Shown here: positions 1-19,866 of the stretch, one piece after another | Layout: each line of letters opens with the position of its first letter | How positions within the stretch are numbered: the first letter of the stretch is position 1 | Origin: a virus | Taxonomy: Duplodnaviria; Heunggongvirae; Uroviricota; Caudoviricetes | DNA: 19,866 nucleotides | Reading direction: 5' to 3' (one strand) | Virus record (IMG/VR): IMGVR_UViG_2579778613_000002 | Location: 1-19,866 of that record | Notes under the pieces: model-generated | The model's input: only the letters and a program-made list of their open reading frames with translations | Database searches by the model: none | Told to the model about the DNA's origin: nothing | Program-made: the position numbers and the translations under genes

Positions 1-793
<793 letters not shown>

Positions 794-1868: not shown

Positions 1869-1877
1869 ACTAGGATT

Positions 1878-2063: not shown

Positions 2064-2076
2064 GATTACTCCTTAT

Positions 2077-2105
2077 AAAAAACCCACCTGACGGTGGGTT
2101 TCATT
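2077..2105 (-). terminator. Rho-independent terminator (bidirectional hairpin) downstream of the lipoprotein gene
   Basis: Plus strand reads AAAAAA-CCCACC-TGAC-GGTGGG-TTTCATTTC (stem 2083-2088 / 2093-2098). On the minus strand the hairpin is followed by UUUUUUAU; on the plus strand by UUUCAUUUCUU. Confidence 0.65.
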
Positions 2106-2107
2106 TC

Positions 2108-2539
2108 TTAATCTTGCTTTGTGGACGGTATAAGGGATGCGTTTGCCTCTTTTGGCTTCAAGGTATACATCCCACCATTAAATGGATCAACAGCAAGCCA
2201 ACCAATTAACCCACCAAACACAAGGTTTCCACCAATATACCAACCATTAGCATTGGCTTTGATTGGCAGGGTAACTGGTTCATACCCATCCTTCTCCATA
2301 GTGATCTGGTAGTTCTTTTTGCCAAAATAGCTACCATCTGACTTGGCGAGCGTTACACCTTGTGGGGTCCTACCTTGCGCAACAATCACACCTGACTCAT
2401 CTTTTACCTTAAAGCTCGCGCCAGAAGGATTGCTGTTCACTTGCACAAGTTGCGTTTCATCACCAACAATAGTTGCGCACCCAGATAACATCATAGCGCC
2501 AGCAACGACGCCAATAATCCTCTTCATATCAATTTCCAT
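2108..2539 (-). CDS. Predicted lipoprotein (PEGA-like beta region plus glycine-zipper hydrophobic segment); candidate moron/superinfection-exclusion protein
   Basis: ORF-track ORF. Signal peptide with lipobox: MKRIIGVVAGAMMLSG-C. The true start is probably the ATG at 2527 (MKRIIG...). Middle region (VQVNSNPSGASFKVKDESG...GRTPQGV...KDGYEPV) fits the PEGA-type pattern; C-terminal GWYIGGNLVFGGLIGWLAV is a glycine-zipper-like hydrophobic stretch. Own terminator downstream. Confidence 0.65.
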   Translation of the reverse strand: MEIDMKRIIGVVAGAMMLSGCATIVGDETQLVQVNSNPSGASFKVKDESGVIVAQGRTPQGVTLAKSDGSYFGKKNYQITMEKDGYEPVTLPIKANANGWYIGGNLVFGGLIGWLAVDPFNGGMYTLKPKEANASLIPSTKQD

Positions 2540-2644
2540 ATTTAAAAAACCGGAAACATCCTAATGACAAACCATTCAAATGTGAAGTAGGCAAAAGATG
2601 TTTACTTTTTTCATGGTATCCTGCTCAAAACTAAGGAGGTTGGT

Positions 2645-2833
2645 GTGAAGAAAAAATTTGTAAACGTTGCAAAGTGCGCAATTTTTATATTTTTTATGAC
2701 CTTTTACGGATTTAGTGCCGGAGAAGGTTTCGATCGTGATGCCAATGCATTCAGTTTCTTTTGTCTGTCTATAGTGGTCATAATTGTATGGGTGGAATTA
2801 AAGCAAACATTGTTTCATGTGCTAAGGAAATAA
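2645..2833 (+). CDS. Small hydrophobic membrane protein (62 aa, two predicted TM helices); function unknown
   Basis: ORF-track ORF with GTG start preceded by a strong SD AAGGAGGT (2633-2640). Two hydrophobic stretches (AIFIFFMTFYGF and FFCLSIVVIIVWV). Visibly AT-rich. Convergent with gp16; no convincing promoter found. Confidence 0.5.
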   Translation: MKKKFVNVAKCAIFIFFMTFYGFSAGEGFDRDANAFSFFCLSIVVIIVWVELKQTLFHVLRK

Positions 2834-2850
2834 CCATCCATGGCATTTAG

Positions 2851-4692
2851 TCACTGCTGTGTTGCCTCAGTGGCAAGCAGCGGTCTGATGGCATTTGCAG
2901 CGTTACTTAATGCTCTTTCATAGGCTGGCGTTCCTGCTTTGGTGTTTGCCAGACGTAAGAGCGCATTCCTTGCTGCTTTGGACTCATACAAGCGCATCAT
3001 TGCACCGAAACCAGCCTCAAGCCCCATTGATACGCCAAGAGTCGCAGTTGCGCCAATCGTCCTTATCCTGTTGGCTTGCGATTGCCCCGTCTGAGTTACT
3101 ACATTTGCGGTGTCTGACCTTGCTGTTTGCTGTAGAACTTCATGAAGAGCATCAAGCTCTTTCATGTGCTTTCCAGAAAAAATAGTGTTGTAAATTTCAC
3201 CACCTGACTGAGATTTCAGCTTATTAACTTCAGTGATGAACTTGGCTGGAGAGTCACCGGCCTTTTCCGCTATTTTGCTGACGTAAGCTGCACGCATAGC
3301 ATCTTTCCCTTTATCATCCAGTGCGCTCCAGATTCGTTTCACGTCAGATGGTTTTCTGCTTAATACAACGGTATTTATAAGTTCAGGACTGGCTTCACTG
3401 CTTGCCTTGTTGAGCTTGTTGGCAATGTTTTTATTAAGCACCTTATTATAAACGTTTGCATAATCGGAATTTGCTTTAAGGTATTTTGCTGCGTCTGATG
3501 CACCGAGGTTTTTAGCAACTGCGTTACGAAGGTCTTTTGACATTGCATTCTCTACCATATTGGTAGCTGCTTTTGCCTGGTTGGGGAAGACCATAGCATC
3601 TCCCTGAACATTAGATCTAAATGCTGTTCTGTGCTGACGCAAGAGATCAAACGTAACATCCAAATCAGTTGCAGGGTTTGCTAATTCTTCACGTAGGTTA
3701 CGCAAGGATGTAAGCAGGCTTTGATTGGCAGACGTCCCAAGCCGTTCCTGTCTTGCGATCGCTGTATTCAGAGCATTCATGGTATTTGTGGTATCAACTG
3801 CGGCATTACCCATTTTATTGGTGACGTCATTGATAACAGCGCCAGCGGCATCCTTCCGCCCCCTTAACGTGGTGGTAAGAGATTTCACCACATCATCAGG
3901 GTTGTACTCACCAAAACGGTCAAAATAATTGCTTACCAGCTTACTACGCGTTGCATATTGCTCAGCTCGCTTTGAGCCTGTCCCGAGCAAAGCCCCCTCA
4001 GCATCCTGAGTAAGTCCGCGAGTGAAAGCATTTTTCGGCGGGATAACATCAGATGTCATTGGTGTCACGCCCATCGATTCTGATGTGGCAATTTTCTTCG
4101 CCACTTCTGGCGCAATATCACCTTTTATAGCCGTTATTCCACGCCCTATTCCCTTTGCTGCTGCGGAAAGAACACCCTGAGCGGCAAGGTTAACTCCGGC
4201 ATTTTTAGCTGCATTTTGTGCGAAATCGCCTTTCTGATTTGCGGCCTCTGCCAGTGATCCAATAGCCATGCTTCCTGCCGTTCCAACTCCTGGAACTAAA
4301 TACCCGCCAATTGTTTCTCCAGCTTGCGCATAAGGGTCTGTCGGTCGCTCGACAGGGCGATAAACATCATCCAAAACCTTGGGGCCGCCAAGCCCCTGGC
4401 TGATTGCATTAATCAGACTTGCGCCACCCTGCAATACGTCAAATGGTATGTTTACCAGACCACGACCAGCCTGTTCTGCAATTTGCCCTGCACTTTTACC
4501 ACCTGTGAGCCAATCACCAGCTTGTTGCATCAATGATGGTTCTTCCCGTGTTGGTGCATTATTGGCCTGATTAACTGTTTGTTGCTGAACAGCCTGACCA
4601 GCAAAATACTCATCAATGGCGGTGCCAATATCTTCGGTGCTCGTACCATCAGGAAAGGTAAATGTCTTACCGTTTGCAGTTACTTTCATCAT
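2851..4692 (-). CDS. gp16: Ejection (DNA transfer) protein, P22 gp16 homolog (613 aa)
   Basis: ORF-track ORF. Size and position (last gene of the late operon, after gp20) match P22 gene 16. Gly/Ala/Gln-rich composition typical of ejection proteins. Start overlaps the gp20 stop. Confidence 0.8.
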
Positions 4693-6104
4693 TCCACCGT
4701 AAATTGAATGCCTGATTTTGAGGTATATGACCCAACCTGATTCCGTGGTTCTCCTGAAGGTGTCGAATCTTGTGCTGGCGCTGCGTCAGTATTCATTGAC
4801 ATATACCGCTTAACGGCACTCCCCAATGATTCACCTTTTTTAACATCCAACCCCAATATCTGACCGCCATTACGCGATTGTCCTGGATTGCCATTCGCGC
4901 TCATCCACTCGGCTTTAAACTCATTAAACTGCGCGTTTCGTCGCTCAAGGTTTGCCATCGCATCAAGCCATCTTGCGACCGTCTCAGGGTTATCCATGTC
5001 AGTTGGTGCACCCTGCCGAACGATCTCAACGTCTTTATCCGTTGCGGGGCCGGGAGGTAGGAATTTAAGAACCTGACTGTTAACAAGGGCATTTTGGCGG
5101 ATGCGCAAATCACGCAATGTTGTATCGCTTCCGGTAAGTTTTGCGAACATGTTCTGTGCGTTACCGAACAAACCTGTCGTTGGTTTTTCTGCTCTGAACT
5201 GTTGAGCAAGCGCACTCATGGAATTGGCTGAGTTTGATGATGCTGTAGCATTGTTTACAGCCGTCTCGATGCCTTTTTCCATGTTTACTGACAGCTTAGG
5301 TGCTTCGCTAATCAACTGCTGAGCCTTTTCCTGTGCTTGCTGCATCTTAAACCCGAACTCTTGCTGATCCAGAGCCAAGCGTTGTGCTGCGATATTGTGT
5401 CCAGTCATTGCTGACTGATAGGAAAGGTTTTGCCCTCTCGCCTGAAGTGCTTCTCCAGCCTGATTGCTGCGGATTGTCTCTGCAAGTTTGCCTCGGTCAA
5501 TTTCACGACCAGCCATCTTGTCCTGAACAGCAAACGCCTTTTCTGGTCCAAGCGCACCGAGAGACATAGTAGTCAACATGTGTGATAGCTGCTCTGGATT
5601 ATGGATACCTGTCTGAATCATCCAGTCAGCATTCGCCCCCACGCGATTTAACCTGTCCTTGTTGTCAGTAATGAATTTACTGTAGGCTTCCGGTCCCTGA
5701 GAAAGAGCGACGTTAGCCCTTATGGCTAAATCGCCCATATCGTTGCGTTGCTGATCATTAAGACCGGAAAACGCCTGTTGTGCCTGTGCAACAAACGCTG
5801 GATTTTCCTGGGCAAACTTAAATAGTCCCGATGGATCACCAGAAGCCCATGCATCAGCGTGAACCTTATTGAACGCACTAATCGCTTTCTGTTGCTGTTC
5901 CTGATTGTAAATATCAGCAACTCCAGCCAGACCACGTAACGCGGTCAGACCAACGTTATTTGCACCTGAGCGAGCCAGTTCATTGTTTTCGCGGATCAGA
6001 CCAAGCGTTGCGTTAATGTCGCTTGCCTTTGGCGCATTCTCATTTTGCGTACCGATGCCAGCCAGAAAACCACCAGAATTAATACCCTGTTGCCACGTAG
6101 CCAT
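4689..6104 (-). CDS. gp20: Ejection protein, P22 gp20 homolog (471 aa)
   Basis: ORF-track ORF. Length and position between gp7 and gp16 match P22 gene 20. Confidence 0.8.
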
Positions 6105-6114
6105 TGATTACTCC

Positions 6115-6807
6115 TTAAAACAACGAGCCAAGCAGACCAAGACCGCCGCCGATCGCAGCCCCCCACGGAGTTGATGAACCAATTAATTTCGCAAGTCCGG
6201 CCCCAGCAATAGCACCAGACGCACCTCCGCCAATAGCAGATTGCATTGCTGATGGTCTGTTGGCATTTGCCGCTGCAAGAGCCGCACTTTGCTGCGAAAT
6301 CTGACTCATGTTGTTGGCATATGTCTGCCCGGCGTTTGCCTGACCTTGCAGTGCGCCAAGACCAATATTTGCCAGATTCTGGTAGTTGTTCATCTGACCA
6401 GATAGCCATTGCTGACCAAGCGTTGGTGCGATTGTTGCTAACTGATTACTGGTTGCGGTGGAACCCAATCCACCTGTTGCTTCCGCTGCCGCCAGACTCT
6501 GATAGCGAGCCTGACCAGCAAGATCTTTGTACTGCTGAGAGTTGTAATACTGGTTAAGCGCCTGACCTTGCCCCTCCAGAGACGATAAGTTTTCGAGGCT
6601 TCCGACATACTTATCAGCCAGAGGAGTAAACGGCTTCAGGTTGTTCATGATGGTGTTGAACTGCTGATTTTGCAGGTCTGCTGCATACTTCTGAGCTTCT
6701 GCGGCATACTTTGCGCTTTTATCAGAACTGCCACCTTTCCCACCCTTTTCAGGGCAATAAGGTTCCTCGCCGCGCAGTTTTCTGCCCAGCTTAAATGCAT
6801 ATAACAT
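6115..6807 (-). CDS. gp7: Ejection protein, P22 gp7 homolog (230 aa)
   Basis: ORF-track ORF. N-terminus MLYAFKLGRKLRGEEPYCPEKGGKGGSSDK... and the Gly-rich C-terminal tail match P22 gp7 as I recall it (229 aa). Confidence 0.8.
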   Translation of the reverse strand: MLYAFKLGRKLRGEEPYCPEKGGKGGSSDKSAKYAAEAQKYAADLQNQQFNTIMNNLKPFTPLADKYVGSLENLSSLEGQGQALNQYYNSQQYKDLAGQARYQSLAAAEATGGLGSTATSNQLATIAPTLGQQWLSGQMNNYQNLANIGLGALQGQANAGQTYANNMSQISQQSAALAAANANRPSAMQSAIGGGASGAIAGAGLAKLIGSSTPWGAAIGGGLGLLGSLF

Positions 6808-6809
6808 GG

Positions 6810-7265
6810 CTATCTCCCGTGATTCAGGAAGTCGATTAGTTCTTCGCGTGTGGCGCTGTAAAAAGTCACGTCATCCACGCCTTTAAAGTATTTCTTGATG
6901 GTTCCTACACGCTTAAGGCCAATCATTGCGCAGTACATCTGCCCGTGGCGGAATTTGCGTGCAGCGAACGATGTGACGCACTGAACGGTGGTGTTAGTCA
7001 GAATGTATCGCCAGAACGCCATCCCGATTTCCTTGCTGAATCCGCGAATCTCTGGCAGGTACATGGCGTGGCAATCAAAGGTCAAAGGCTGAATCTCCTG
7101 ATAGTAAACAATTCCGCCGAACTGCCCGTGCACGTTCACCTCAAAGTAACGGCAATCAGGTTTGTAGTCGTATCCATCACCGTTGTTGCTCCCGGCGATA
7201 ATGTCAGGGTGATTTCCGACTGCTTCGATCAGGTCAATGTTTCGCGTTGGTTTGAATGTAATCAT
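6810..7265 (-). CDS. Gene-14-position protein (151 aa); putative head/ejection-protein assembly factor
   Basis: ORF-track ORF located between the tail-needle gene and gp7, where P22 has gene 14. Assigned by synteny and size only; I do not recall the sequence well enough to confirm homology. Confidence 0.5.
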   Translation of the reverse strand: MITFKPTRNIDLIEAVGNHPDIIAGSNNGDGYDYKPDCRYFEVNVHGQFGGIVYYQEIQPLTFDCHAMYLPEIRGFSKEIGMAFWRYILTNTTVQCVTSFAARKFRHGQMYCAMIGLKRVGTIKKYFKGVDDVTFYSATREELIDFLNHGR

Positions 7266-7966
7266 CAGTCAATCAGCCCATGTAATCTAAGTGCCGTTTC
7301 AAGCGCCAGAATACGCTGCCGCGCCTGCTGCAAACCTGTAGCGAGAGATGCGACTTCGGATTGTGTGTACGTAGTGCCGACAGTGTATGACTGGTTAGCG
7401 TTGAATGAGCCAAGAAGTGGCGTACCTGTGGCTGCTGTCCACCCTGTCTGACGAGCACCAATAACCTTGGTGCCGCCGACCGAATAGGATGTTGTTACAT
7501 TGAGGGGAGATGCCAGCGATTGTGTTGCAGTGGCTGTTTTCGATACATAGTCGTCCTGTAATGCAGAAATGTTGCTCTCAGCAGTCGTAACCCGGCCATC
7601 AAGAGCGCTGACGTCAGCCTGTAAAGTGACTATTTCTCCTTCAGCCGTGGTTAGTCTGACATCCAGCTCTGCAATTGCCGCAGTATTCGCAGCAATACGG
7701 ATTTCATGGTCATCTACTTCAATGCGGAGCTGACGAATTCTTTCTTCGTGATCGACCAGAATCACATCCTGCTCATCGTTCCTGACTTGTGCGTCATAAG
7801 CGCCCTGTCCGGCCTCGTTGGCCTTGTTCGCCACGTTACCAACATCAGTACCCTGTGCGATAACGTAAAGCAGATATGACTGCGAGAAGATATTGCGTGG
7901 AAGGATTGATGTATCGAGCTGCGTCGCCTGAACAATAACAGGTGTATTGAGATTCGAATCAGCCAT
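7265..7966 (-). CDS. gp26: Tail needle protein, P22 gp26 homolog (233 aa)
   Basis: ORF-track ORF. N-terminus [43 protein letters not shown] and the central coiled-coil region (RVTTAEGEI...[17 protein letters not shown]) match P22 gp26; same length. Confidence 0.85.
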
Positions 7967-9384
7967 TACTCAATCCTTATCTGGCAGCCAGACAGAGTGA
8001 CAGGTGACTTCGTGATAACACGCAATTTGAAGCCGACATTTTTCCTGATGCGCCCAACTCGCTTCCACAAAACGCGCTTGTCGTAAACGAACGGTTCATT
8101 CTGCTCAATCATCTGCTCACGACCGTAATTGATGCCGTCAGTGGTTGCAGAGAGGAACAGGCGGTCAGCGTACTGAGCGACACCAGTCGATGATTCAACT
8201 TCCAGATCAAAACATCTGGCGTTCTCAGCTTTGAAGAGTGGTGTAAACAACAGGTGTTCTTGCTGTAGTCCATACTGGCTGCTGATATCGAACTGCAATT
8301 TGCCGGTCACGGACTCCAGCTTATCGCCGCACGTTATCTGATTGCCTTCGTAAATAAAGTCGATAGCGCGGTACACATCGTCATACAGTCCAGTTTTCAG
8401 CGCACACCATTGCGGACCATTGGTACTTGAAGATGCGTCGTACACGAGTACATGGCGCGGAAGATGGATAATCAGCAACTCATGCGCATCAAACCGCAGC
8501 GATTCCATCACACCATCAGCCAGTTCATCAGCAGTGTAGGAGCGGAGAATTTTCTCAATGCTCGCGCTGGCGATTGGTGATACCTGACCGGAGCCGATGA
8601 TGTATACAGACGGCGCACCTGTTGCCGGATTGCTGATGAACGCATAAGAATCAGCAAACGGCGTTTTGCAGTAAGTTCCGGCAATACCTTTCTGCACCAT
8701 CAATGATGGCTGTGCGACATACAAAGCGGCACCAGCGGTGGTTGCCCCCGTCAGGGAGAAATATTCAATCGTCGATGAACCAAAGCAGACGATGAAGTCT
8801 CGCCATGTTCCGATGCCGATGATGCCGTCAGGCTGAGACTCTGCACGATATTGTGCGCTGTATCGGTCAGGGTGCGATTCGTCTTCAAGGTCAGTGATAA
8901 ACCATGAATCAGTGCCGTCTTTTGACCACGCATAACGCCCACGCAAGCGCGTAATGTCACGAACCGAACCTAACTCATACTGAGTGAATCCGCTATCTGC
9001 AGGCCAGTTTGAGACGGTTTTAACCGTGCCATCATAGCGATACTCTACCAGTTGACCATTAACGCCTACAGCCTGAGATGTCCGACCATGCGCCATTGAT
9101 ACACGACCACTTCCGGCAACATCACCGACTTCGCTTTCGCCCTTATACAGCTTGCCCCCACACACGCGATATACAGCACTCTGCGCCATGTTGTACTCGA
9201 CGCCGCGCGATATACCGTTCACATCAGAACGTTTGGCAATGCCCGGGAATGAGCGAAGATATCCGCTGCTGTTAAGGATTTCTTTGGGTGTAGCCAGCAT
9301 ATTCACTGGCAGATAGTCGATGTAGTCGGCGTTTCGGAAATCTTTGCCGACACCTTTCATAAGCGGAAGTTGCTGAATCGGCAT
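7966..9384 (-). CDS. gp10: Tail hub / head completion protein, P22 gp10 homolog (472 aa)
   Basis: ORF-track ORF. Length identical to P22 gp10 and position between gp4 and gp26. Confidence 0.8.
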
Positions 9385-9885
9385 TTATTCGCCCCCGTTA
9401 TCGCAAGGTTCCTTCCGGTGGAAGTAATTCCAACCATTCCACTTCGCCAACTGGTTACCGCTACCAACAGGCATACGGTTTGGATAACCGGACTTACATT
9501 TAGCGGCTTTTGCTCTGTCCATTGCAGACAGTTTGACGAGTCGCTCTTTCCCGTATCTGGCAGTGGTTATAAGTTTTGCTGGCGCTTCCAGCGCATAATC
9601 TGGAGCAATGCGGCAGGCAAGGTTGAAAATGACGGCATTGATAGCGTTATTTGATAAACCGTGCTCATCGCCCGGTTCTGGAGCGACATCTGCATCAGCG
9701 AAAATGTAGCCAACGTTGATACCAGGTGACACATCACCGCCAAGCCATTCAGCCATCATCATTTCAAGGTCGTTGACGCCGTCTTCCATAGACTGCGGTT
9801 CTACATCGGTTAACGTGGCATTTGATGCCACACCGAGCTTACGTAATGCCGCAAGAACTAAATCACCCTTCGTTGTCAGGTTCAT
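9385..9885 (-). CDS. gp4: Tail adaptor / head completion protein, P22 gp4 homolog (166 aa)
   Basis: The ORF-track ORF (9385-9966) has a spurious N-terminal extension. Homology to P22 gp4 ([33 protein letters not shown]...) begins at the internal Met, [33 protein letters not shown], giving 166 aa as in P22. Confidence 0.8.
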
Positions 9886-10105
9886 CTGCTGCCGCCTTAG
9901 GTTTTCGACCAGGCTTTTTACGCTGTTTTTCTTCTTGCTCTGGCTCTGGCTCTGACTCTGCAACATCCTTCAGAAGATCATCAGGATGTGCAAACCAGCC
10001 AGCATCCAGATATTCCTGAAGCTCTTCGGCTTTCACGATTTCAAAGTCGTATCCAACGCCTTTCCACTTCTTCATGTTGCCATGGCGAAAGATCATGTGT
10101 GTCAT
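9863..10105 (-). CDS. Small protein with acidic Pro/Glu-rich and basic C-terminal tail (about 80 aa); function unknown
   Basis: ORF-track ORF 9863-10153. Preferred start is the ATG at 10105 ([16 protein letters not shown]...) because SD GGAGA lies 5 nt upstream; alternative starts at 10096 or 10075. Contains an in-frame (GCTCTG)x3 repeat at 9937-9960 encoding EPEPEP. Overlaps the gp4 start by about 23 nt. Confidence 0.45.
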
Positions 10106-10118
10106 GCTTGTCTCCAGA

Positions 10119-10141
10119 TAAAAAAGGGAGCCGAAGCTCCC
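10119..10141 (-). terminator. Rho-independent terminator/attenuator immediately after the coat gene
   Basis: Minus strand reads GGGAGC-UUCG-GCUCCC followed by UUUUUUAU (stem 10126-10131 / 10136-10141). It lies 9 nt downstream of the coat stop codon, inside the late operon. Confidence 0.7.
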
Positions 10142-10149
10142 TCTGGTTA

Positions 10150-11445
10150 TCACGCGGTCTGGTTAGGCAGACCAACACCAATTGCCTCTGGTCGTACAGC
10201 ACATGCTGAATACCACACAGCAATACGGCACTTACCAGACAGAGTGTTGATATCACCCTGCGTTGCGAAGATGCCGTTAACACCAATACCAGGAATGCTG
10301 AAGGAAGACGTTTTCATGCCAGCAAACAGTTCATGGGTTACCGGGATCGGCTGAGACAGCAGACGGATTGAGTCATCAGCCCAGAACACGTTAGCGGTGG
10401 TTGTTGCCACGTTCAGAACGTTTACCGGAGTGGTATCAGCAAGAGAGGTGTTTACGTTAGCGTAAGCCTTCTCTTCTTTTGTCAGTGACGCGTCATCCAG
10501 TGCAATCGGCTTCGGCGTGATTTCGATGTGAGTACCATCGATCACACGGGTGATTGAGAAAGTCGCATCATCAGTCAGCACGTTCTTCGCCATCTGAGAC
10601 AGGAATTTCACACCAGTGAAGCTGATTTTGTCGCCGCGCTTAAATCCGGTGGTGGAGGATACGGTCACCGTTGCAACACGGTTGTCGACGTTCTCTTTGT
10701 TACCATCGGTATCAAGGGTGTATGCCTGCGGCTTAAACTTCTGCGCTCCAGACACAGTTACACCAGTAGCGGTTGACTTGGTAACTGCCGGAAGTTTCGG
10801 TGAGCGAAGAATTTCATCAAAGCCAGCAATCTGACGCTGAATAGTACCGTTGCGATACGCTTCTTCAGGAACGCGCCCAAAGATGTCACCATCTACCAGG
10901 TTGCGGCCTGCTTTGCGGTAATCGTCAGGGTTCAGGAAGTAACTGATGCCCATATCGCGGTTTAGCTCACGGGAGAACATCAGGCGCTCTGCATCAGACA
11001 CAAAATCCCAGCCAGACAGGCCAGTAGATGGACCAATTGCGCGGGTATCGTGAACAACAAGTGAGCCCATTTCGGTTGCCTGTTTGGCAATCGCTGACTC
11101 AATGTTATTCGCCAGTTTTTTGGCGGATGCCTGGATGCGGCGACGGTAAGAACGCTCATCACGCAGGTCATCTGCACGAAGCTCGAAGAAATCGTTATCC
11201 GGATCGCCCATGTTGCACTTCACGGAGAGTTCCAGAATCCCGGTTGCGTTGCCAGTTAAATCCCAGCCAGTCTGGGTTGGCGCTTCCTGCTCAACAGGCA
11301 TCCACACGGTGTTGCTTGAACGCTGCATGGATTCTGCCGGAGGGGTGTATTTTGTCACTTTGGACGCCATTGGCGTCAGGTTCTGGACGGTTTCGATGAT
11401 TTCATCGATAGCGTAAGTAACTAACTGCCCTTCTTTGAGAGTCAT
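10150..11445 (-). CDS. gp5: Major coat protein, P22 gp5 homolog (431 aa)
   Basis: ORF-track ORF. Sequence (...[22 protein letters not shown]...[10 protein letters not shown]...CRIAVWY...[14 protein letters not shown]) closely matches P22 coat protein (430 aa) as recalled; downstream of scaffold. Confidence 0.9.
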
Positions 11446-11512
11446 ATATTGAATACCTTACTTTCTTTATGTGCTATACTATTGTTATATCAACATATAG
11501 CGCATTAGGGTT

Positions 11513-12034
11513 ATGAGCATGGAACTGAATGAATACTTCGAATACCGCGATGGCTCTTTGGTTTGGAAAGCCAGAAGCTCTGAATTTTTCAACAACAAAA
11601 AGAATCGCAACTATCACAACGTTTGGAATGCAAAACACGCTGGGAAAGTTGCTGGTCTTTTAGAAAGCAATGGATATATCCGCATAAGAATTAACGGCAT
11701 TAAGTGGCTAGCACACCGCATCGTATGGGTGATGTTTAACGGAGATATTCCAGAAGGCATGGAAATTGACCATATAAATGGGATTCGCCACGACAACAGA
11801 ATTGAAAATCTTCGTCTTGTGAAAAAATCAGCAAACCAAAGGAATAGAATCAAACTATCTAAAAATAACTCCAGCGGAATATCTGGAGTTTACTTTTGCA
11901 ACACGCGGAAAAGATGGATCGCTCATAAGCGACTGCTTAATGCAAGAGTGCAAAAAGTATGTTCTTCATTCGAAGAGGCGAAAGAAGTAATCAGAAAGTT
12001 TGACGAGGAAAACAACATCACGATATCGAAATAA
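11513..12034 (+). CDS. HNH homing-type endonuclease (NUMOD4-like N-terminus, HNH motif, AP2-like DNA-binding domain), inserted between scaffold and coat genes
   Basis: ORF-track ORF, antisense to the late operon. HNH motif EIDHINGIRHDNRIENLRLV; N-terminal YRDGSLVWK and downstream GISGVYF...KRWIAHK fit the NUMOD4/HNH_3/AP2 architecture of phage homing endonucleases. Start is more likely the second ATG at 11519, which has AGGG 8 nt upstream. Extended -10 TGcTATACT at 11472-11480. Its TAA stop (12032-12034) directly abuts the scaffold stop codon (12035-12037). Visibly AT-rich. Confidence 0.8.
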   Translation: MSMELNEYFEYRDGSLVWKARSSEFFNNKKNRNYHNVWNAKHAGKVAGLLESNGYIRIRINGIKWLAHRIVWVMFNGDIPEGMEIDHINGIRHDNRIENLRLVKKSANQRNRIKLSKNNSSGISGVYFCNTRKRWIAHKRLLNARVQKVCSSFEEAKEVIRKFDEENNITISK

Positions 12035-12946
12035 TTATCGAATTCCTTTATTCAGTTGCGCCTTAAGCTTGCGGTATGTCTCTACATCCCCTTTGTTTGC
12101 TGCCGCTTCCATCTGCTTTTCAATCGCAGATATATTTGCAGCAACAGCGTGTCCCTGAATGGGTTCATCAGGTAACGGGGCTTCTGAAACAGGCTTGGCT
12201 CGAGGCTTGAGAGTTAAACGTTCTGACAGTCGAGTGAGTTCAATCAGCGCGGATTGCCCGTCCATCGCCAGCAACTGGCGTGTTTTCTCAGGATTAGCAC
12301 CAAGGTGATACATGAGAGCGGCGGATTTCTCCGGGAAGAGGCGCATGATGTCGGCACCGACTGCTGGCGGCACCAGTTGCATGAATGCATCCTCTTTCTC
12401 CTGATAGTCAGGGATATTGAGCTTTTCCGCTGCGTCGTAGTGCTTACGGGCTGCCTCGACGTATTGCGCTGATTGCTGGGTGAACTCCTGAGTTTTTCGA
12501 CCCTGCTCGGCGACAGCCTGGCTTCGTGCATCCATAGCCTTGATCTGCCATTCACTGTTTGCCTGCTGGAAGGCAGCCAGTGCGCGGCTCTGGTCATAGT
12601 CGTACTTAGCCAGTGCGTCTTCGGAAAGATAATCGTTAGGGTCTGGTTGTTTTGGTAACTCAGGGCTCACCCGCAGGTGCTCCGGCAACTCTCCACGCTT
12701 AACTGCTTCCATCTGCTGCTCAAGCTCACGCTGGCGTTTGCGTTCGATGCGGCGACGGGCAAATTCAGCATTAGTTGCCGGGTCTTGTTTTGGTTTCTCA
12801 TCGTCTTTCAGGACAATCTCGAAGCCTTCTTCCTGACCTGCGTTGTCGTTGGCATTATCGACAACTAAGCCATCAGCAGATGCCGCTGCATGATTGCCGG
12901 GCAGGGTTAATTCTTCAGAAGCCTGAATGTCGGTGGTTTGGTCCAT
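12035..12946 (-). CDS. gp8: Scaffolding protein, P22 gp8 homolog (303 aa)
   Basis: ORF-track ORF. Same length as P22 gp8 and near-identical stretches (e.g. [12 protein letters not shown]..., ...[49 protein letters not shown]...). Confidence 0.85.
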
Positions 12947-12959
12947 GATTAACTCTCTC

Positions 12960-15128
12960 TTATTGAGGTGTCTCGGCTACTCCGCCGGAGGGGATTTGAA
13001 CTTGACGCATAAGATTCGCGAAATCCATGCGTTGTGAATGAGTCTGGTCTGCATCTTTAAGAAGCAGCTCAGCGTTAGCACGAGCATCTTTGCTGCGCTG
13101 TTGCTGGAATTGACCTACGAGCTTGAGGTACTCACGCAGTTCTGCCTGCTTGTCGAGGTCCATATTGTTGAAGATTTCTGCAATCTTCGCGGCGTTGAGT
13201 TGGTTTTGAGCTTCAACCTTGGCGGCTTCAACCTGAATCTGCGCCTGTTGGTTCTCTGCCTTGAGCAATTCAGCCTGACCTTGCAGAAGGATACCCTGCG
13301 CCTGAATTTGCTCTGCTGATGGCTGCTGCGGCTGCTGTTGAGCCTGCTGTACCATCTCCATCTCTTCAGGTGTTTCTGGTTTCTTCAGCCCCATCATCAC
13401 CAGTTGCTTGTTCGCGTACTCTCGCATCATCTCGACGCCTTTACCGTCAAGCAGCGTGAAGTATTGCAGCATCAGCATCTGGAACTCTGGAGTACCTTGC
13501 GGAACCTTTGTTAGCAACTCCTGAATCTCTGCGCGATTCTGTTCCTTCATACTCTGGAAGGATGGTCCAACGTCTGTATAGCACTCATAGCGACCGCGAA
13601 TGTCGTTGAGTGTGACCACATTGCCGGACTGGTAATCGACAACTTGCGCATAGAGTTGAACGTCTTTCTCGCTTCCATCTTCAAGTGTCAGCGTTACATG
13701 ACGAGGAACGTCATAAATATCGTTGACCATTGAGGCATAAATCTCGCCATCACGTCGCATTGCGGTAGCCAGGTTATCCTGAAACACGTATGTCTCAAGA
13801 TCTGCCCGCATGTTCAGTTGATTGACGGTATCGAAAGCGACCTGAGAGTTTGCCGCCTGCGCATCCACGCCAAGACTAGCCACCTCTTTCACTGCGTTGG
13901 TGGCAGCCTCAAGCATGTAAGCGTTGGCTTGCGGCACTTCAGGGTTTTCCATGTAGGAGATTGGACCAATCGGCAGGTCGTTACCGTTTTCATCGGTCCT
14001 GTTCTGCAGATAGTACGGATAGTCATCATTTCCACCGTACATGTATTCGTAGCCTTCGATTTGCTCAGGGAAGAAGGTCGGTTTCTTCTTCGGTGAACGA
14101 GCAACAATATCGGCGTTGAACGACATGATCATGTTACGAAGGCGCTGACCGTCTTTCGTCAGCCTTACCACTCCTTCGTAGCACTCCTTGTCACCAGCGA
14201 ATGACCATTCGCCATACACTGGAACGATTGGAATATGCTCTCCGGCTATCTTCTCGCGGTCTTTCAGTATCTGCGTGCAGGTGATGATCGACTTATACAC
14301 ACGCCGACGCTTCACCTTGCGCTCTGCTACCTTAATGAATCCACGATTAGCCAGGTCGTCGATGACGTCTTTGATATCCTGCTGGTAATAGCTGACCGGC
14401 TCACCTGTCAGCGGGTCGCGGTAGATGAAGACCTTCTCCTTCTTCTCTTCTACCTCGTAATACTCAGCGACGTAGACGACATCATTCGACACCCACGGGA
14501 ATAGCCATGTATCGTTAGGATTCTGGAAAGATGGCAAGGTATCCGGGTCAATACCGTAATCCTCTGCGAACTCTTTCCAGCCATTGCGCGACAAGGCGTT
14601 AATCACCGTGCAATGCTTAGCGTCGCTCTTATCCATCTGCTTGCTGTTGGCGTCCCATATAACGTGTGAGCAAGCTTCATGGATTGGCAGGCGTCGGATT
14701 ACCTGATTGTTGCTTGTTGGGTCGTTGTCTTCGTACTGCGTGACCAGACGCCATGCACCAACGCCTGACTCTATCTGCTCACGAACGCCAACGTTAACGG
14801 CAATTTTTGCCGTATTATGGCGCATATCAGTACGATACATTCCCATCAACACATCGGCAGCATCAGGATTAGCACCGTCTTTTGGTCGGAAGAGAACGTC
14901 GATAGGGTTCCGGCGCATCTCTGCGACCAGTTTCCTGACCACCGGGCGAACAACATCGAATTGTCCGCGATATTGCAGGGTGGTGTAGTTTGATAGCCAG
15001 TCATCCCATTGGCTTATGCGACTGAAGTATAAATCGTTAGAAGCTTCTGTTCTCGCCTCGTCGGAAGACATCCAATCAACATCGAATGCTTGCAGTATCT
15101 TATTTAATCGCTCTGCGTTGTCAGTCAT
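12960..15128 (-). CDS. gp1: Portal protein, P22 gp1 homolog (722 aa)
   Basis: ORF-track ORF. Strong similarity to P22 portal as recalled (e.g. [56 protein letters not shown], and the C-terminal Gln-rich barrel region). Confidence 0.9.
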
Positions 15129-15147
15129 AACTTTACCGTGATAAAAT
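15118..15147 (+). promoter_or_regulatory. Sigma70-type promoter for the antisense HNH endonuclease gene, overlapping the portal start
   Basis: -35 TTGTCA (15118-15123), 18-bp spacer, extended -10 TGaTAAAAT (15139-15147). Followed by SD AGGAG (15166-15170) 8 nt before the GTG start at 15179. Confidence 0.5.
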
Positions 15148-15178
15148 CAATGGGACAACTTCAACAGGAGATTCTATT

Positions 15179-15679
15179 GTGAGCCATCCATCTATAGAAG
15201 ATATAAGGAAAAATTTCACATACGATGCTGAAACCGGAATTTTGTACGCGGCTAATCGCACAAGGAGGACAGACCTTAACGGCAAGCCAGTTGGGTGCCA
15301 GCATGGAAACGGATACCTTGATGTAAGGCTTGGTAAAAAACTGTACTACGTGCACAGAATTTGTTTTGCGCACTACTATGGTTACTGGCCCGAAGCAGTA
15401 GATCACATAAACGGAAACCGTGCTGATAACCGCATCTGTAATCTTAGAGATGCCAATAAGCAGTTGAACGGACTAAACCGTGGCATGGATTGCGACAATT
15501 CAACTGGATACAAAGGAGTTTCCTATCGCAAGGACACAAATAACTACATGTGGCAATTTGTGGTAGAAGGCAAGAAATACACAAAAAGCGGATTCGCTAC
15601 AGCATTAGATGCATACAAGCATAAGGTAGCATTTATTAACGCTCTGAATTCCGCTGCCTCTGAATTTCTCAAGCCGTAA
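15179..15679 (+). CDS. HNH homing-type endonuclease (paralog of the 11513-12034 gene), inserted between TerL and portal genes
   Basis: ORF-track ORF with GTG start, antisense to the late operon. HNH motif AVDHINGNRADNRICNLR; same domain order as the other HNH gene (NUMOD4-like FTYDAETGILY, HNH, AP2-like GYKGVSYRK...MWQF). Ends 9 nt from the TerL stop codon. AT-rich. Confidence 0.8.
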   Translation: MSHPSIEDIRKNFTYDAETGILYAANRTRRTDLNGKPVGCQHGNGYLDVRLGKKLYYVHRICFAHYYGYWPEAVDHINGNRADNRICNLRDANKQLNGLNRGMDCDNSTGYKGVSYRKDTNNYMWQFVVEGKKYTKSGFATALDAYKHKVAFINALNSAASEFLKP

Positions 15680-15688
15680 CAACAGTAT

Positions 15689-17191
15689 CTATCTTGTTGA
15701 CCGTGCGATGGGCCTGATTGGGGCTGGTATCTTTTTCTCTTTTGGTTTTTTGATGTCGCGCATCATTTTTGCGAAGCGGCGCATCATGTATGCATAGCGA
15801 ACGGCGGATAGCACGTCGTCGTTAAGCTTGACGATTTTCCCGTTTTCATCGCGGTGATAGAGGCGGAACTCCTCAAAGAATGGCTCACAGGTGTTGAATA
15901 CTTTGAAGCGACCATCAAGCATCATGTCGCGCAATTCAGTGATTCCAGGCTCCACCGCGTTACCGCCATCAGGCCATGTCGCATGCTCCTGCAACATCAT
16001 AAAACCAGCATCTGCATACTGCCCTTTGAGCTGCTCACCGCCGCCCTTCTCGTGCTGGTTTCCGTCATGAGGCCATGCTGTTGGCACTTTATGCGCCCAT
16101 GATTTAACAGCTCCCCATGCCTGAACGGCTGTTTTTTCTTTCGCCTTCCACACGCGTGAAACGTAGATTGTGTCTGCGTCCTTATCCCACCAAAGCTGAA
16201 CCTGCGCCTGTGGGTGATCCCATCCGAAATCCATCCCGCCAATTACGTAGAAGTGATCAGGACACTCGAACGGCTGACACTTAATCGTCTCTTCCGGTAT
16301 CTGGAATATTCGCCCGCTACCCATCGTAGGAATACCGCGAGCACGCGCCTCTCTCTCATGCTCAGGATAGGATGCGATGATTTGCTCTTTCTGCTCGTCG
16401 GTGTAGTGCTCAGCGTCATAGATGGTCATGTTGACCACTTTCTGAGACTTGCTGGGATTCTTCAGGAACTTGGTAACAACGTCAGACATCCCCATCAGCG
16501 GGGTAAACGTCAGAATTGAGAATTGCCCGTATTTGTTGGTACGGGTAAGACCTTCGCCATAAATGCTGTATGGTGGCTCTTCGTCAAACCACACGCCGTG
16601 GATTGTGTCACCCTGCCAGCGAGCACGGCCTTGCGAGTATGGCTTGAAGTAGCAGATTGAAATGCCATCTTCAACGCCATCAGCCGTGTGATGCTTAACC
16701 AGAAGATGATCAACAAGGTTCGGAAAGAAAGGAGACTTCTTCCAGCTAATGATGTCTTCTTTAGGTATGGAACCGTAGCCTGGCTCATCATTCTCTTCGA
16801 TACGACCACACAGGATGCGTTGAGTCGTTTTGGTTACAGTCTCGTTTGTCTCGCCGCCAATCCAGAAGACAACAGGCTCATAGAAACGCTTACCTTTCCA
16901 CTCCCCACCATATTTACCATCAGCCGGATAGCCTTTTGTTCCCGGATAACGCCCGGTAAGGTGAAACGCGACTTCAGCAGCACCAGTAAATGACTTACCA
17001 AGCTGGTTACCAGCCATAAAACAGCGCTCTGGATAGTCATGCCCGGCGTCGATGAACTCACGCTGTTTGCTGTATGGCGTAAATTCATATAGCAGGTGTG
17101 TGTTCCGGTAGTTCTCTTCTTCTTCGAGTAGCTCGAGCAATTCTATTTGCTCTTCGTCGCTCAGGTTATCAAGAATCGCGTCCAGTTCCAC
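15689..17191 (-). CDS. gp2: Terminase large subunit, P22 gp2 homolog (500 aa)
   Basis: ORF-track ORF. N-terminus [70 protein letters not shown]... matches P22 TerL as recalled, with a Walker A-like GNQLGKS. Start overlaps the TerS 3' end. Confidence 0.9.
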
Positions 17192-17663
17192 GGTTGAATA
17201 GCTCCTTGATACGAGAGCGTCGCTTATCGCGATCTCCCTTATCAGGTGTCACGTCTTCAACTTGCGACTGCTCTTTGAGGCCCAAATCACGGGCGATAAT
17301 GTTAGCGTTGAGAAGGTCAGCGGCTGCGCCAGAGAATTTCTGGTCGTAGATGACCTGCTCTGCTCGCGTAACGACTTCAGATAAATCTTCTCGCAGGCGA
17401 TATGTGCGCCATGTTTCAAGAGTCACATCAATGAACAGAGTGAGGCCGGTAATGGTCATCGCTCGCATCTTGGCGATAGGCTCTTGTATCACTTCACCCT
17501 GATACGAGAACGCCTTCATCTCCCATAGCGGGTTAGCTTCTACCCACTCGAAGTATTCACAACAAGCAGCCCACAGCGCCTCAGGCGATTCGAATTTAGG
17601 ATTTCGCCCATGACTACTGCGGGCCTCCCAAAATCGGTTGCCCTTTGGTGCTGCCATATTCAT
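17169..17663 (-). CDS. gp3: Terminase small subunit, P22 gp3 homolog (162-164 aa)
   Basis: ORF-track ORF. Sequence (M)[51 protein letters not shown]... matches P22 gp3 as recalled. The start may be the ATG at 17657 rather than 17663. Confidence 0.85.
17369..17390 (-). other. pac: pac site (headful packaging initiation sequence) within the TerS gene
   Basis: Minus strand reads GAAGATTTATCTGAAGTCGTTA, encoding EDLSEVV of TerS. This matches the 22-bp P22 pac sequence as I recall it, at the expected place inside gene 3. Confidence 0.5.
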
Positions 17664-17692
17664 CTCACTTATTTGTTATTTCAGGTTGAGCA

Positions 17693-17935
17693 TCATGCTC
17701 CGGTAGTGAACAGGTCTAACGCTTCCTTCGATTTACGCACCGCTTCGATAGTGCGGGTCGTGATATCTGAATTAGCGCCGCCTGACTGGAAGTGAATTTT
17801 GAATAGCTCAAGCTTCAGCTCGTCAGTGCCAATGAATTGAAATGCTTCTTCTGCGGCTGCGTTCTGGTTCATGACCAGTTTGTAAATCTCTAACTGGAAT
17901 TTCTGTTCTTCAGTCATGGGAATAATCTCTGCCAT
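17693..17935 (-). CDS. Hypothetical protein (80 aa) immediately upstream of TerS
   Basis: ORF-track ORF. SD GGAG about 6 nt upstream of the ATG at 17935. Predicted helical; no recognisable motif. Confidence 0.5.
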   Translation of the reverse strand: MAEIIPMTEEQKFQLEIYKLVMNQNAAAEEAFQFIGTDELKLELFKIHFQSGGANSDITTRTIEAVRKSKEALDLFTTGA

Positions 17936-17956
17936 TGTTGGCTCCGTTTATCCGTT

Positions 17957-17982
17957 AAAAGGGATATCAGTTAAGTTATCCC
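17957..17982 (-). terminator. Weak terminator- or attenuator-like hairpin between the gp49/gp66-like gene and the 80-aa ORF
   Basis: Inverted repeat GGGATA-N10-TATCCC (17961-17982), followed on the minus strand by UUUUAACGG. A second inverted repeat AAGCCATT-N20-AATGGCTT lies at 17994-18029. Confidence 0.3.
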
Positions 17983-18038
17983 GTGTAGGGTATAAGCCAT
18001 TATCAAAGCCACTCAGTAAGGAATGGCTTTTGTAATAA

Positions 18039-18410
18039 CTACTGTTCGCTTAGCTTCTGCTTCAGCAAGTAACCTTCGAACATCCAGATTTTGTTTACAG
18101 CATTCTGCCGGGCAATCTTCCGACCAATTTCTGCATCAAAATTTTCCGGACTTGCACAGGCACTCTCTCCGGTGACGGTGAAGCCGTTGCGCAGCACCAG
18201 GACGCAGAACGTCAGCAGAGAAAGTGATTCGTGCGGCTGGTAGTTTACCTCTCCGCCAGTATGTTTCGCTTTTATGGCTTTGCCAAAGGCACCATCCTCT
18301 GCTGTGAAATATGCCTCCTGAGCAATAATTCCTTCGATATGGTCTGGCGTAACTCGCGGTGCCGTTTTGCCTTTCTCAACGATTTCTTTTTCGATTTGCT
18401 GGTCGTTCAT
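18039..18410 (-). CDS. Conserved phage protein of unknown function, possibly Gp49/Sf6-gp66 family (123 aa)
   Basis: ORF-track ORF 18039-18479. The annotated N-terminal extension starts at a TTG and overlaps the terminator at 18453-18477, so the ATG at 18410 (MNDQQIEKEIV...) is preferred. Motif ...LTFCVLVLRNGFTVTGESACASPENFDAEIGRKIARQNAVNKIWMFEGYLLKQ resembles a widespread prophage family; family name from memory only. Confidence 0.55.
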   Translation of the reverse strand: MNDQQIEKEIVEKGKTAPRVTPDHIEGIIAQEAYFTAEDGAFGKAIKAKHTGGEVNYQPHESLSLLTFCVLVLRNGFTVTGESACASPENFDAEIGRKIARQNAVNKIWMFEGYLLKQKLSEQ

Positions 18411-18452
18411 AATTATGACCTTGTTGGTTGTTAAAGATGTTTTTGTGGTGGC

Positions 18453-18477
18453 AATAAAAAAGGCCGCCTGAGCGACC
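18453..18477 (-). terminator. Rho-independent terminator downstream of the AT-rich 80-aa ORF
   Basis: Minus strand reads GGUCGC-UCAG-GCGGCC (one G-U pair) followed by UUUUUUAUU (complement of 18453-18461). Confidence 0.6.
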
Positions 18478-18494
18478 AATTTAATAATTAATTA

Positions 18495-18737
18495 TCAATA
18501 ATGTGGGAATTGGCTACTATTTTGCAAGATAACCCAAGATGGGCGAAACAAGTCAAAAACATTGATGCTTAACAGGGCTTCATTTATTGATTTTTTTTCA
18601 TCCGTAGAAACTCCGCGTCCTGCATTTGACATTACAAGCTGACCATTAACTATTTCACTACATTGTTTTACATAACTACCTGGCGGTATTGATTGAAAGT
18701 TACATGTACCATTTATTATTTTATCAATTTCACTCAT
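18495..18737 (-). CDS. AT-rich moron ORF (80 aa); function unknown
   Basis: ORF-track ORF. SD GAGG 5 nt upstream of the ATG. Strikingly AT-rich compared with neighbours, and followed by its own terminator. Protein has no motif I recognise. Confidence 0.5.
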   Translation of the reverse strand: MSEIDKIINGTCNFQSIPPGSYVKQCSEIVNGQLVMSNAGRGVSTDEKKSINEALLSINVFDLFRPSWVILQNSSQFPHY

Positions 18738-19176
18738 ATCAACCTCGTCTAGTTGTTCGTCATAGATTCAGTGGCTGGCGGTGACGATTCCGCTTTTCGG
18801 GAGCTACCCTAGCCACTGCTTGATTCTATCCGATGTCTTTCCATCAGTCCGCCACCACAAAGAATCTTTTTTGCCATAAGGCAGGAGGTTCATCTTTCAG
18901 TGGCTGCCAGTGTTATTTCCCCGCTTTCTGGCTTGGGTTGTTTCGCTGTACTGCCGTAACTGGTTACCAAGAATAAATTTTGGTTTCATTATCAAGCCCA
19001 TCCGTAGATAGGCTTTGTAATGAACTGGCTCTTATCTCAACGCAGCCCCTTACCGCGCGCCATATGCTTAACTTCAAGCATCAGCAATGAGATGTTAAAT
19101 CTGGATTCACTCCAGAAGTGATCACCACCCTGTCTACAGAGCCAGATGTGAAGGATGATGAGTAAAATTATCGCTA

Positions 19177-19653
19177 TCATCGAAGGCATTGCGTCCTGAT
19201 GTATTCCTGAAGCGTTCTCAGTGCTGTTTGGTCGCGGATAATTCCGTCCCGGACACCGAGAACGTTTCGTCCAGCAACTGGAGAGAGTTCGACGGTGGCA
19301 TCATTGCCCATGCCGGAGGCGCCGGAGGCGCCGGAGGTTTCGGCTGAGGATGGCACAGGGCATTTTCCTTTGACGAGCACCCTGCCACCATTATCAAGCT
19401 TGCGCCGAAGAGCATCATTTTCAGCTTTCGCATCAGCTAACTCCTTCGTGTATTTAGCATCGAGTGCATCAGCAGCACGCTGGCGTTGCTGCATGTCAGT
19501 AATGGTGGCGGTCGCCTGCTTCAGCTCACTGACTTTTTTATCACGCTGTTCTTTGTAGGCGATGGCGTTATCACGGTAATGATTAACAGCCCATGACAGG
19601 CAGACGATGATGCAGATAACCAGAGCGGAGATAATCGCGGTTACTCTACTCAT
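19177..19653 (-). CDS. Rz: Rz-like inner-membrane spanin (i-spanin), P22 gene 15 homolog
   Basis: ORF-track ORF 19177-19665 begins at a GTG. The ATG at 19653 ([23 protein letters not shown]...) is preferred: SD GGGGG lies 5 nt upstream and it overlaps the lysozyme stop (ATGA). N-terminal TM helix followed by a charged coiled-coil periplasmic domain. Confidence 0.85.
19218..19433 (-). CDS. Rz1: Rz1-like outer-membrane lipoprotein spanin (o-spanin), embedded in Rz in a different reading frame
   Basis: ORF-track ORF lying entirely within Rz. [19 protein letters not shown] lipoprotein signal with lipobox, followed by a proline-rich segment [14 protein letters not shown] typical of Rz1. Confidence 0.8.
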
Positions 19654-19865
19654 TGTTGCCCCCACAAACAGACTTCACGCTCAATCTCACGGCGAGTCAT
19701 CAGCCCTTTCCATTGCTTACCGCCAGCGTATGTCCAGCGCCGTAGCTGATCACATGCGCCTTTGATATCGCCCTGGTTTATTTTGCGAAGAAGCGTCGAT
19801 GTTCTGAAATTTCCAGCACCAACGTTGTAAACGAACGAGTAAAGAGCGCCGCGCGTTGTTTCCGG
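19650..19865 (-). CDS. gp19: Phage lysozyme (endolysin), C-terminal 71 codons; 5' end lies beyond the window end, P22 gp19 homolog
   Basis: Hand translation of the minus strand from the window edge gives [71 protein letters not shown], a T4-lysozyme-like C-terminus matching P22 lysozyme as recalled. Stop TGA overlaps the Rz ATG. Confidence 0.8.
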
Positions 19866-19866
19866 T

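Follow-up and report, generated by a model that had tools for sequence, protein, structure and literature searches.

Why does an endonuclease gene lie, on the opposite strand, between the large terminase (TerL) gene and the portal gene of a P22-like prophage, and how far does the inserted unit extend? The locus belongs to the virus record IMGVR_UViG_2579778613_000002, of which positions 1 to 19,866 were analyzed; this whole stretch of 19,866 nucleotides (nt) is referred to as the window. A 560-bp insert separates the portal start (15128) from the TerL stop (15689–15691) and holds one plus-strand open reading frame (ORF), 15179–15679. The original prediction of an AT-rich gene placed antisense between TerL and portal agrees with this layout, the GC content being 42–44% over the insert versus 50–53% in the flanks. 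Based on the sequence comparisons described below, the insert is probably part of an active or recently active free-standing homing endonuclease cassette in a P22-like (Lederbergvirus-type) prophage. The genes concerned are as follows.

15179–15679, plus strand: endonuclease gene, referred to as the homing endonuclease gene (HEG), with a GTG start and 166 amino acids (aa), identified by Pfam HNH_3, PHROG 99 and alignments
15680–15688: 9-nt spacer from the endonuclease stop TAA (15677–15679) to the TerL stop TAG (minus strand, 15689–15691)
15689–17191, minus strand: large terminase TerL (Terminase_6N and Terminase_6C, Pfam profile matches)
12960–15128, minus strand: portal gene (P22_portal, E = 8.8e-163)

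In relatives without the insert (phage IME10, E. coli M9, P22, epsilon34, SPN9CC and a Proteus phage), the portal ATG directly follows the TerL stop or overlaps with it, as in ..TAAATGGCC.. or ..GATAATGGCC.., and a strong GGAG or GAGGA ribosome-binding site lies within the last TerL codons. The insert is carried by 2 of the 215 complete E. coli genomes that match the flanks and, among 472 IMG/VR loci that have a related P22-like portal, by about 18 (about 4%). Among 114 phage records matching the portal N-terminus at E ≤ 1e-30, only SEN22 carries it. This comparison with P22-like genomes lacking the insert, proposed along with the original prediction, defines the insertion site and bears out the claim of a mobile insertion that parts TerL from portal: the junction is seamless in empty relatives, and the insert is sporadic. 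No different type of insert was found at the TerL/portal junction among the loci examined; three loci flagged as "other" proved to be ordinary empty sites with a PPPI TerL tail. A single-protein scan of the genome contigs returned no match, its peptide patterns being too specific.

The same counts bear on a possible role in packaging. P22-like phages package by a headful pac mechanism and are not known to need an HNH partner for it. An HNH protein could still aid terminase cleavage, as HK97 gp74 does in cos phages; the gene adjoins the large terminase gene, and the HK97 precedent is discussed in PMC10448857. However, the gene is missing in more than 95% of close relatives with 96–100% identical TerL and portal genes, including the viable phages P22, IME10 and Dewey, and it is encoded antisense to the packaging operon. 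Because the insert is so rare among relatives with this junction, we exclude a packaging accessory as extremely improbable; a conserved accessory present in all relatives had been named at the outset as the finding that would undo the interpretation as a mobile element.

Although rare, the insert is placed with high fidelity. Every close homologue that could be placed (66–99% aa identity; SEN22 and contigs of Salmonella houtenae, Obesumbacterium proteus and metagenomes) is antisense and situated between portal and TerL, about 45–50 nt from the portal ATG and at most about 10 nt from the TerL stop, which some of them overlap. These homologues adjoin three types of small terminase, GP3_package, Sf6_terminase and Terminase_2. 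In two loci, L014 and L015, the endonuclease protein (P0003), the TerL tail and the portal start are identical, whereas the small terminases are Sf6_terminase versus GP3_package and the TerL proteins have 485 versus 502 aa; the same cassette therefore sits on different packaging modules. Distant relatives (37–47% identity) directly follow a TerL gene in sense orientation. One of them, with 37% identity (L125, IMGVR_UViG_3300023222_000123, 1489–1959), lies between a Terminase_3-type TerL and a P22-like portal gene and overlaps the portal start, and a relative with 47% identity (L124, 1411–1887) stands in sense orientation directly after the large terminase gene. Since distant relatives occupy this position in sense orientation, the association with the TerL/portal junction is older than the antisense clade.

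To define the mobile unit, identity profiles of loci with the insert (HEG+) and empty loci were compared in three independent lineages, each represented by a near-isogenic set: the window versus E. coli M9 and IME10, SEN22 and L017 versus P22 and epsilon34, and L018 versus L128 and L129. In all three lineages, TerL is 96–100% identical up to 0–12 nt before its stop, and the portal gene is 96–100% identical from about nt 118 onward; portal nt 1–117 alone are divergent, with 43–83% nucleotide identity. Portal codons 1–39 contain 15–22 synonymous versus 8–12 non-synonymous codon differences, the last of which falls at codon 38 or 39 in every pair. The mobile unit thus exceeds the ORF, as it takes in 117 nt of the portal gene and 12 nt of TerL. 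The cassette of about 689 bp (window 15012–15700) comprises, in order, recoded portal codons 1–39, the promoter and 5' untranslated region, the endonuclease gene, the 9-nt spacer, and three rewritten TerL codons with the stop. The interval first assigned to the element, 15118–15679, thus located the insert correctly but not its full extent. The parts of the cassette that mark its two edges are listed below.

15012–15128, minus strand: recoded portal 5' end, codons 1–39 (identity profiles, codon alignments), with 43–60% nucleotide identity to empty alleles that are otherwise 96–100% identical, the differences being mainly synonymous
15015–15020, minus strand: portal codons 37–38, CGC ATA (Arg-Ile), the last cassette-specific position
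14994–15011, minus strand: conserved block CAA TGG GAT GAC TGG CTA (Q-W-D-D-W-L), portal codons 40–45, at the right edge of the cassette
15689–15700, minus strand: altered TerL tail at the left edge of the cassette, ...PIAR-STR-stop versus ...PIAR-RT-stop in empty alleles

At the right edge, homology to empty alleles resumes at portal codons 40–45. In about 75 distinct HEG+ and empty alleles, gathered by a pattern that required this block and permitted Y at both Asp codons, CAR TGG GAT GAC TGG CT is mostly unchanged, even at the synonymous sites of its GAT and GAC codons, while the surrounding codons vary. Just inside the edge, CGC [A/C]TA stands at codons 37–38 in each of the 14 distinct HEG+ alleles, none of which has GTN at codon 38; in the three near-isogenic pairs, this codon changes from Val (GTN) in the empty allele to Ile or Leu (ATA or CTA) in the HEG+ allele. 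The third base of codon 37 is a frozen C in the 14 HEG+ alleles, whereas in empty alleles it is C in 17, A in 17, T in 10 and G in 17. Likewise, the third base of codon 38 is a frozen A in HEG+ alleles, in contrast to T in 14, C in 11, G in 19 and A in 17 empty alleles. The synonymous sites near these frozen positions are saturated among HEG+ alleles. As a clean marker of HEG+ versus empty alleles, codon 38 was rejected: it was perfect in the first 16 loci but failed in the wider sample. Separately, every HEG+ lineage examined has GAA at portal codon 28.

The cassette also replaces the translation signals of the portal gene. In HEG+ alleles, a weak Shine-Dalgarno (SD)-like CACGGTAAAGTT-ATG (15129–15142, minus strand) takes the place of GGAG or GAGGA, and the portal start is uncoupled from the TerL stop. 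Exchanging a strong ribosome-binding site and this coupling for a weak SD probably costs the phage. Portal codons 2–6 are A-rich in most HEG+ lineages, which possibly compensates for the weak SD. Beside the TerL stop, six loci (L002, L114, L016, L118, L018 and L021) carry TGG(C), as in ..GATAATGGC..; together with the final codons of the endonuclease gene (on the other strand, AAG CCA TAG), it makes a short tandem, ATGGC-T-ATGGC. This ATGGC is a relic of the original overlap between the TerL stop and the portal ATG, and the tandem may indicate where in portal codon 2 the ancestral insertion took place.

Two empty alleles are mosaic within the same stretch. In L168 (IMGVR_UViG_2871282230_000001), portal codons 20–44 are identical to those of the HEG+ locus L114, including CTA at codon 38, and codons 1–19 (MADNEN...) are those of an ordinary empty allele. 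The locus resembles a HEG-less recombinant in which the distal half of the recoded segment has been retained. In L024 (Salmonella phage SPN9CC), the TerL tail and portal codons 1–24 are of the E. coli type and the remainder is of the P22 type, and therefore a recombination joint can lie inside the same 117-nt stretch even without the endonuclease gene.

The encoded protein is a free-standing HNH_3/AP2-type endonuclease by its sequence, related to I-HmuI. Residues 56–98 match Pfam HNH_3 (PF13392) over profile positions 1–45 of 46, with 50.1 bits against a cutoff of 24.8 (E = 2e-13), and the protein matches PHROG 99 "HNH endonuclease" at E = 4.7e-50. I-HmuI (1U3E, E = 0.015) is the sole solved relative found by sequence. 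D75, H76, N88 and N97 of the endonuclease align with D74, H75, N87 and N96 of I-HmuI, whose catalytic roles we take to be those given by Shen et al. 2004. Among 82 homologues, H59, D75, H76, N78, D83, N84, R85, N88, L89, R90 and N100 are invariant, and N97 is conserved in at least 90%. The catalytic HNH residues, which might have failed a closer alignment, are therefore intact relative to I-HmuI and invariant or nearly so across the family. The C-terminal domain (about residues 109–155) is predicted to adopt an AP2 fold, in which a three-stranded sheet packs on a helix. The Pfam AP2 profile scores below threshold on the sequence itself (13.6 bits against a cutoff of 33.3, E = 0.083), and precomputed PF00847 matches exist for many homologues at 30–45% identity. 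No NUMOD4 (PF07463) match was found in the endonuclease even at E ≤ 10, and no NCBIfam model matched the protein. Of the type first proposed, NUMOD4/HNH/AP2, the HNH part is thus well founded, the AP2 part holds by predicted fold but not by Pfam score, and the NUMOD4 part is dropped.

Furthermore, the orthologous ORFs are intact in 11 of 11 cases examined, and an ATG or GTG start codon stands at the same aligned place in 10 lineages. Since synonymous sites are saturated, dN/dS is not computable, and we report the proportions of non-synonymous and synonymous differences (pN and pS) instead: pairwise pN among orthologues is 0.075–0.226, and pS is about 0.8. The protein has been kept by purifying selection for a long time, and an inert relic is therefore disfavored.

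Expression signals were predicted directly upstream of the gene.

15118–15147, plus strand: predicted sigma-70-type promoter (promoter scan; block CCGTGATAAAAT)
15151–15155, plus strand: TGGGA motif, 4–8 nt past the -10, at the expected transcription start, invariant in 10/10 lineages
15166–15170, plus strand: Shine-Dalgarno AGGAG, 8 nt before the GTG, from the sequence

The promoter scan gave a -35 element TTGTCA (15118–15123), an 18-nt spacer and a -10 element TAAAAT (15142–15147) with TG at 15139–15140, amounting to 10/12 matches; the -35 hexamer is the reverse complement of portal codons 2–4. Two promoter-like matches were found in the region against 2.7 expected in shuffles, and a single match is not above chance. 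The support for the promoter comes from its conservation: the CCGTGATAAAAT block or a consensus-preserving variant (TAATAT, TAGAAT) is retained in 9 of 10 lineages that have diverged to saturation at synonymous sites. Similarly, an SD-like purine-rich element (GGAG, AGGA or GAGG) occurs at the same place in most lineages. The near-consensus extended -10 with its -35 inside the first portal codons, the good SD and the orientation of the predicted promoter against the late operon, all anticipated in the original prediction, recur in this way across the clade. No conserved terminator was found after the endonuclease gene by the window scan and the lineage alignment; a single weak plus-strand hairpin was discarded, as it lies within TerL coding sequence shared by empty alleles and is probably due to chance. 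An Rfam scan of 14500–16300 at E ≤ 1 gave no RNA family, and thus no intron or riboswitch.

An autonomous and conserved sigma-70-type promoter, antisense to the late genes, uncouples the predicted expression from the late operon, and this raises the possibility of a domesticated nuclease that helps its carrier. Such an enzyme would be made by the prophage while the late operon is silent and would cut incoming HEG-less P22-like phages in superinfection exclusion or interference competition, homing being a by-product. This account is in keeping with weak PADLOC "HEase" matches and with another antisense HNH_3 gene of the late operon, which likewise has an extended -10 of its own, and interference competition by phage HEGs, through marker exclusion, is an established idea (PMC2988022). 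In contrast to a strongly beneficial exclusion gene, however, the gene is rare among prophages. We regard domestication as unlikely when taken by itself; it is compatible with homing and not exclusive of it.

The population data were examined in nine distinct HEG+ loci of the E. coli type. Their 560-nt HEG segments differ by 0–5 nt and their 117-nt recoded portal segments by 0–2 nt, whereas the adjacent 1 kb of portal differs by 9–44 nt and the adjacent 1 kb of TerL by 15–35 nt. Nucleotide diversity (pi) is about 0.45% in the cassette versus 2–5% in the flanks; the cassette is about six times less diverse than its flanks. In 100-nt windows, the flank diversity of HEG+ genomes (1–5%) equals that of 67–71 HEG-less genomes, and the divergence between the two groups (dxy) equals pi right up to the cassette edge. 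Low diversity in the cassette together with diverse flanks indicates one young cassette on many old flank haplotypes, a pattern compatible with what homing predicts.

A passive origin of the same pattern was weighed: an inactive or irrelevant, moron-like insert moved by ordinary recombination in the flanks, with the recoded portal start left over from a diverged donor phage. Rampant flank recombination (dxy equal to pi), the mosaic joints in empty alleles such as SPN9CC, the nucleotide-conserved block at the cassette edge, which would favor crossovers, and the low prevalence are all in keeping with it. Nevertheless, an inert insert would decay, whereas here the ORF is always intact and pN is low despite saturated synonymous divergence; moreover, the catalytic residues are invariant, the promoter and SD are conserved, and the same edge recurs in 3/3 lineages despite usable runs of identity inside the recoded segment. 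We therefore give passive carriage little credence.

Under the homing model that we prefer, an extended -10 sigma-70 promoter of its own would drive the endonuclease gene, which runs antisense to the late operon. When HEG+ and HEG-less P22-like genomes meet in one cell, the enzyme would nick or cut the TerL/portal region of the HEG-less genome, and recombinational repair off the HEG+ genome would copy in the cassette of about 689 bp. The recoded portal stretch most likely removes or alters the recognition site, and the carrier would therefore be immune to its own nuclease.

Two candidate cut sites can be proposed. The favored one lies near portal codons 36–42 in empty alleles, where the recoded stretch has its distal edge: all three lineages have the end of their cassette at this place, and CGC [A/C]TA is fixed in 14 HEG+ alleles while the third bases are free in empty alleles. 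Under this putative site, L168 would be the expected resistant, HEG-less reciprocal recombinant. Free-standing phage endonucleases characteristically cut at some distance from the gene that encodes them, with co-conversion of the intervening stretch in every case (PMC2988022). The alternative is the junction of the TerL stop and the portal ATG (..TAATGGCCGAC..), which the insertion would have split. Nearly all empty alleles have ATGGCCGAC here, a sequence interrupted by the insert, and the ATGGC relic beside the TerL stop is retained in several lineages. GCCGAC resembles the RCCGAC core bound by plant DREB AP2 domains, which is a lead only.

Several points weigh against this interpretation. 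Unassisted homologous recombination in the flanks could produce an identical diversity pattern, and a prevalence of 1–4% is modest for an efficient drive. The edge at codons 36–42 coincides with the first good identity island for recombination of diverged genomes. In addition, Ile or Leu occupies codon 38 in 15 of 60 distinct empty alleles, so that this codon is only a candidate determinant of immunity or recognition. Finally, both transcription from the promoter and the nuclease activity of clade members are predictions.

A more specific and tentative version of the homing model is a self-immunizing cassette whose nuclease would recognize the start of the invariant block of the portal gene that encodes SQWDDWL (about codons 36–42). 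The cassette would bring a recoded portal 5' end of its own that resists cleavage (CGC [A/C]TA at codons 37–38), and the nuclease, made by the prophage, would cut superinfecting HEG-less P22-like phages. Expression by the resting prophage is envisaged because the gene is antisense and has an autonomous sigma-70 promoter. We consider this doubtful as a whole; if true, the element would combine a gene drive with a prophage-encoded exclusion system aimed at an essential gene of competitors.

Among known systems, the closest is SEN22, whose HNH endonuclease insertion at the TerL/portal junction is mentioned in one sentence by Mikalova et al. 2017 (PMC5261728). The window gene is the E. coli counterpart of the SEN22 gene (SEN22_3, YP_009191456): both stand at the same junction in the same antisense orientation, encode 166 aa with 68.7% aa identity, carry the same CCGTGATAAAAT promoter block, and share the cassette edge at portal codon 38–39. 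However, synonymous sites are saturated between the two, and the recoded portal segments differ in sequence. In SEN22, the TerL tail is of the P22 type and an ATGGC is left from the former portal start; the window, in contrast, has the rewritten three-codon TerL tail. I-HmuI of Bacillus phage SPO1 is an intron-encoded HNH nicking enzyme with 24% identity, in contrast to the free-standing window gene. Its C-terminus is a helix-turn-helix DNA-binding region, while that of the window protein is predicted to be an AP2 fold.

HNH-AP2 proteins are a recognized HEG family of phages, cyanobacteria and protists (Magnani et al. 2004, cited in PMC10448857), and HEGs are known to lie in clusters next to essential genes, including terminase genes, and to delimit regions of genetic exchange (PMC10448857). 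Like other members of this family, including ICP1 "IPA-HNH", the window protein has an N-terminal HNH and a predicted C-terminal AP2 domain, is phage-borne, and lies near terminase and essential genes. The ICP1 IPA-HNH domains are described in the same text as too diverged for Pfam HNH_3, which the window protein matches clearly; unlike IPA-HNH, it belongs to temperate P22-like phages and is placed antisense. The T4 genes SegF, SegG and MobE ("intronless homing") are likewise free-standing genes between essential genes. In T4 (PMC2988022), the cut site of free-standing endonucleases is apart from the gene, the interval undergoes obligatory co-conversion, and marker exclusion is localized; by analogy, T4-like co-conversion may account for the 117-nt recoded portal segment. 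Seg enzymes are of the GIY-YIG type and T4 is virulent, whereas the window protein is a predicted HNH enzyme. The available text of PMC2988022 contains no T4 case of a sharply bounded, recoded segment of a neighboring gene that recurs across lineages.

By itself, the element is an ordinary selfish one, and the occurrence of HNH-AP2 HEGs close to terminase genes has been well described. That a recoded segment with sharp bounds recurs and that the placement is uniformly antisense are details of some worth, which involve no new principle. The value of the locus lies in a natural experiment, in which three near-isogenic occupied/empty pairs have the same sharp edges and one empty allele carries half of the recoded segment; this leaves two short candidate stretches as the probable target. 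In the genetically tractable P22/E. coli system, direct tests of homing, of immunity and of a possible exclusion by the prophage thereby become feasible. Moreover, annotation of the ORF alone underestimates the mobile unit, by which an essential gene has its ribosome-binding site and first 39 codons rewritten.

As a whole, the window corresponds to the late region of a P22-like prophage, in which the virion assembly genes are read from the minus strand. Its further genes are as follows.

17169–17663, minus strand: small terminase gp3
12035–12946, minus strand: scaffold
10150–11445, minus strand: coat
9385–9966, minus strand: gp4
7966–9384, minus strand: gp10

The second antisense HNH_3 gene (11513–12034, plus strand, 173 aa, Pfam E = 3.9e-22) is located between the start of the coat gene and the stop of the scaffold gene. 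It is 41% identical over 85 aa to the TerL/portal endonuclease and has its own extended -10-like TGcTATACT, with upstream signals at about 11462–11500. A recoded segment was sought beside this gene and none was found, empty relatives aligning across essentially all of the flanks. The gene occurs in phages Dewey and Louie, both without the TerL/portal insert, and is missing from IME10. A related prophage of E. coli 19451123 (L003, NZ_CP191548) carries both HNH genes of the window and a third one, which lies on the sense strand at the gp4/gp10 junction (5391–6116). Beside this third gene, a pseudogene fragment annotated as "packaged DNA stabilization protein" suggests an insertion by which the end of a gene was duplicated or split.

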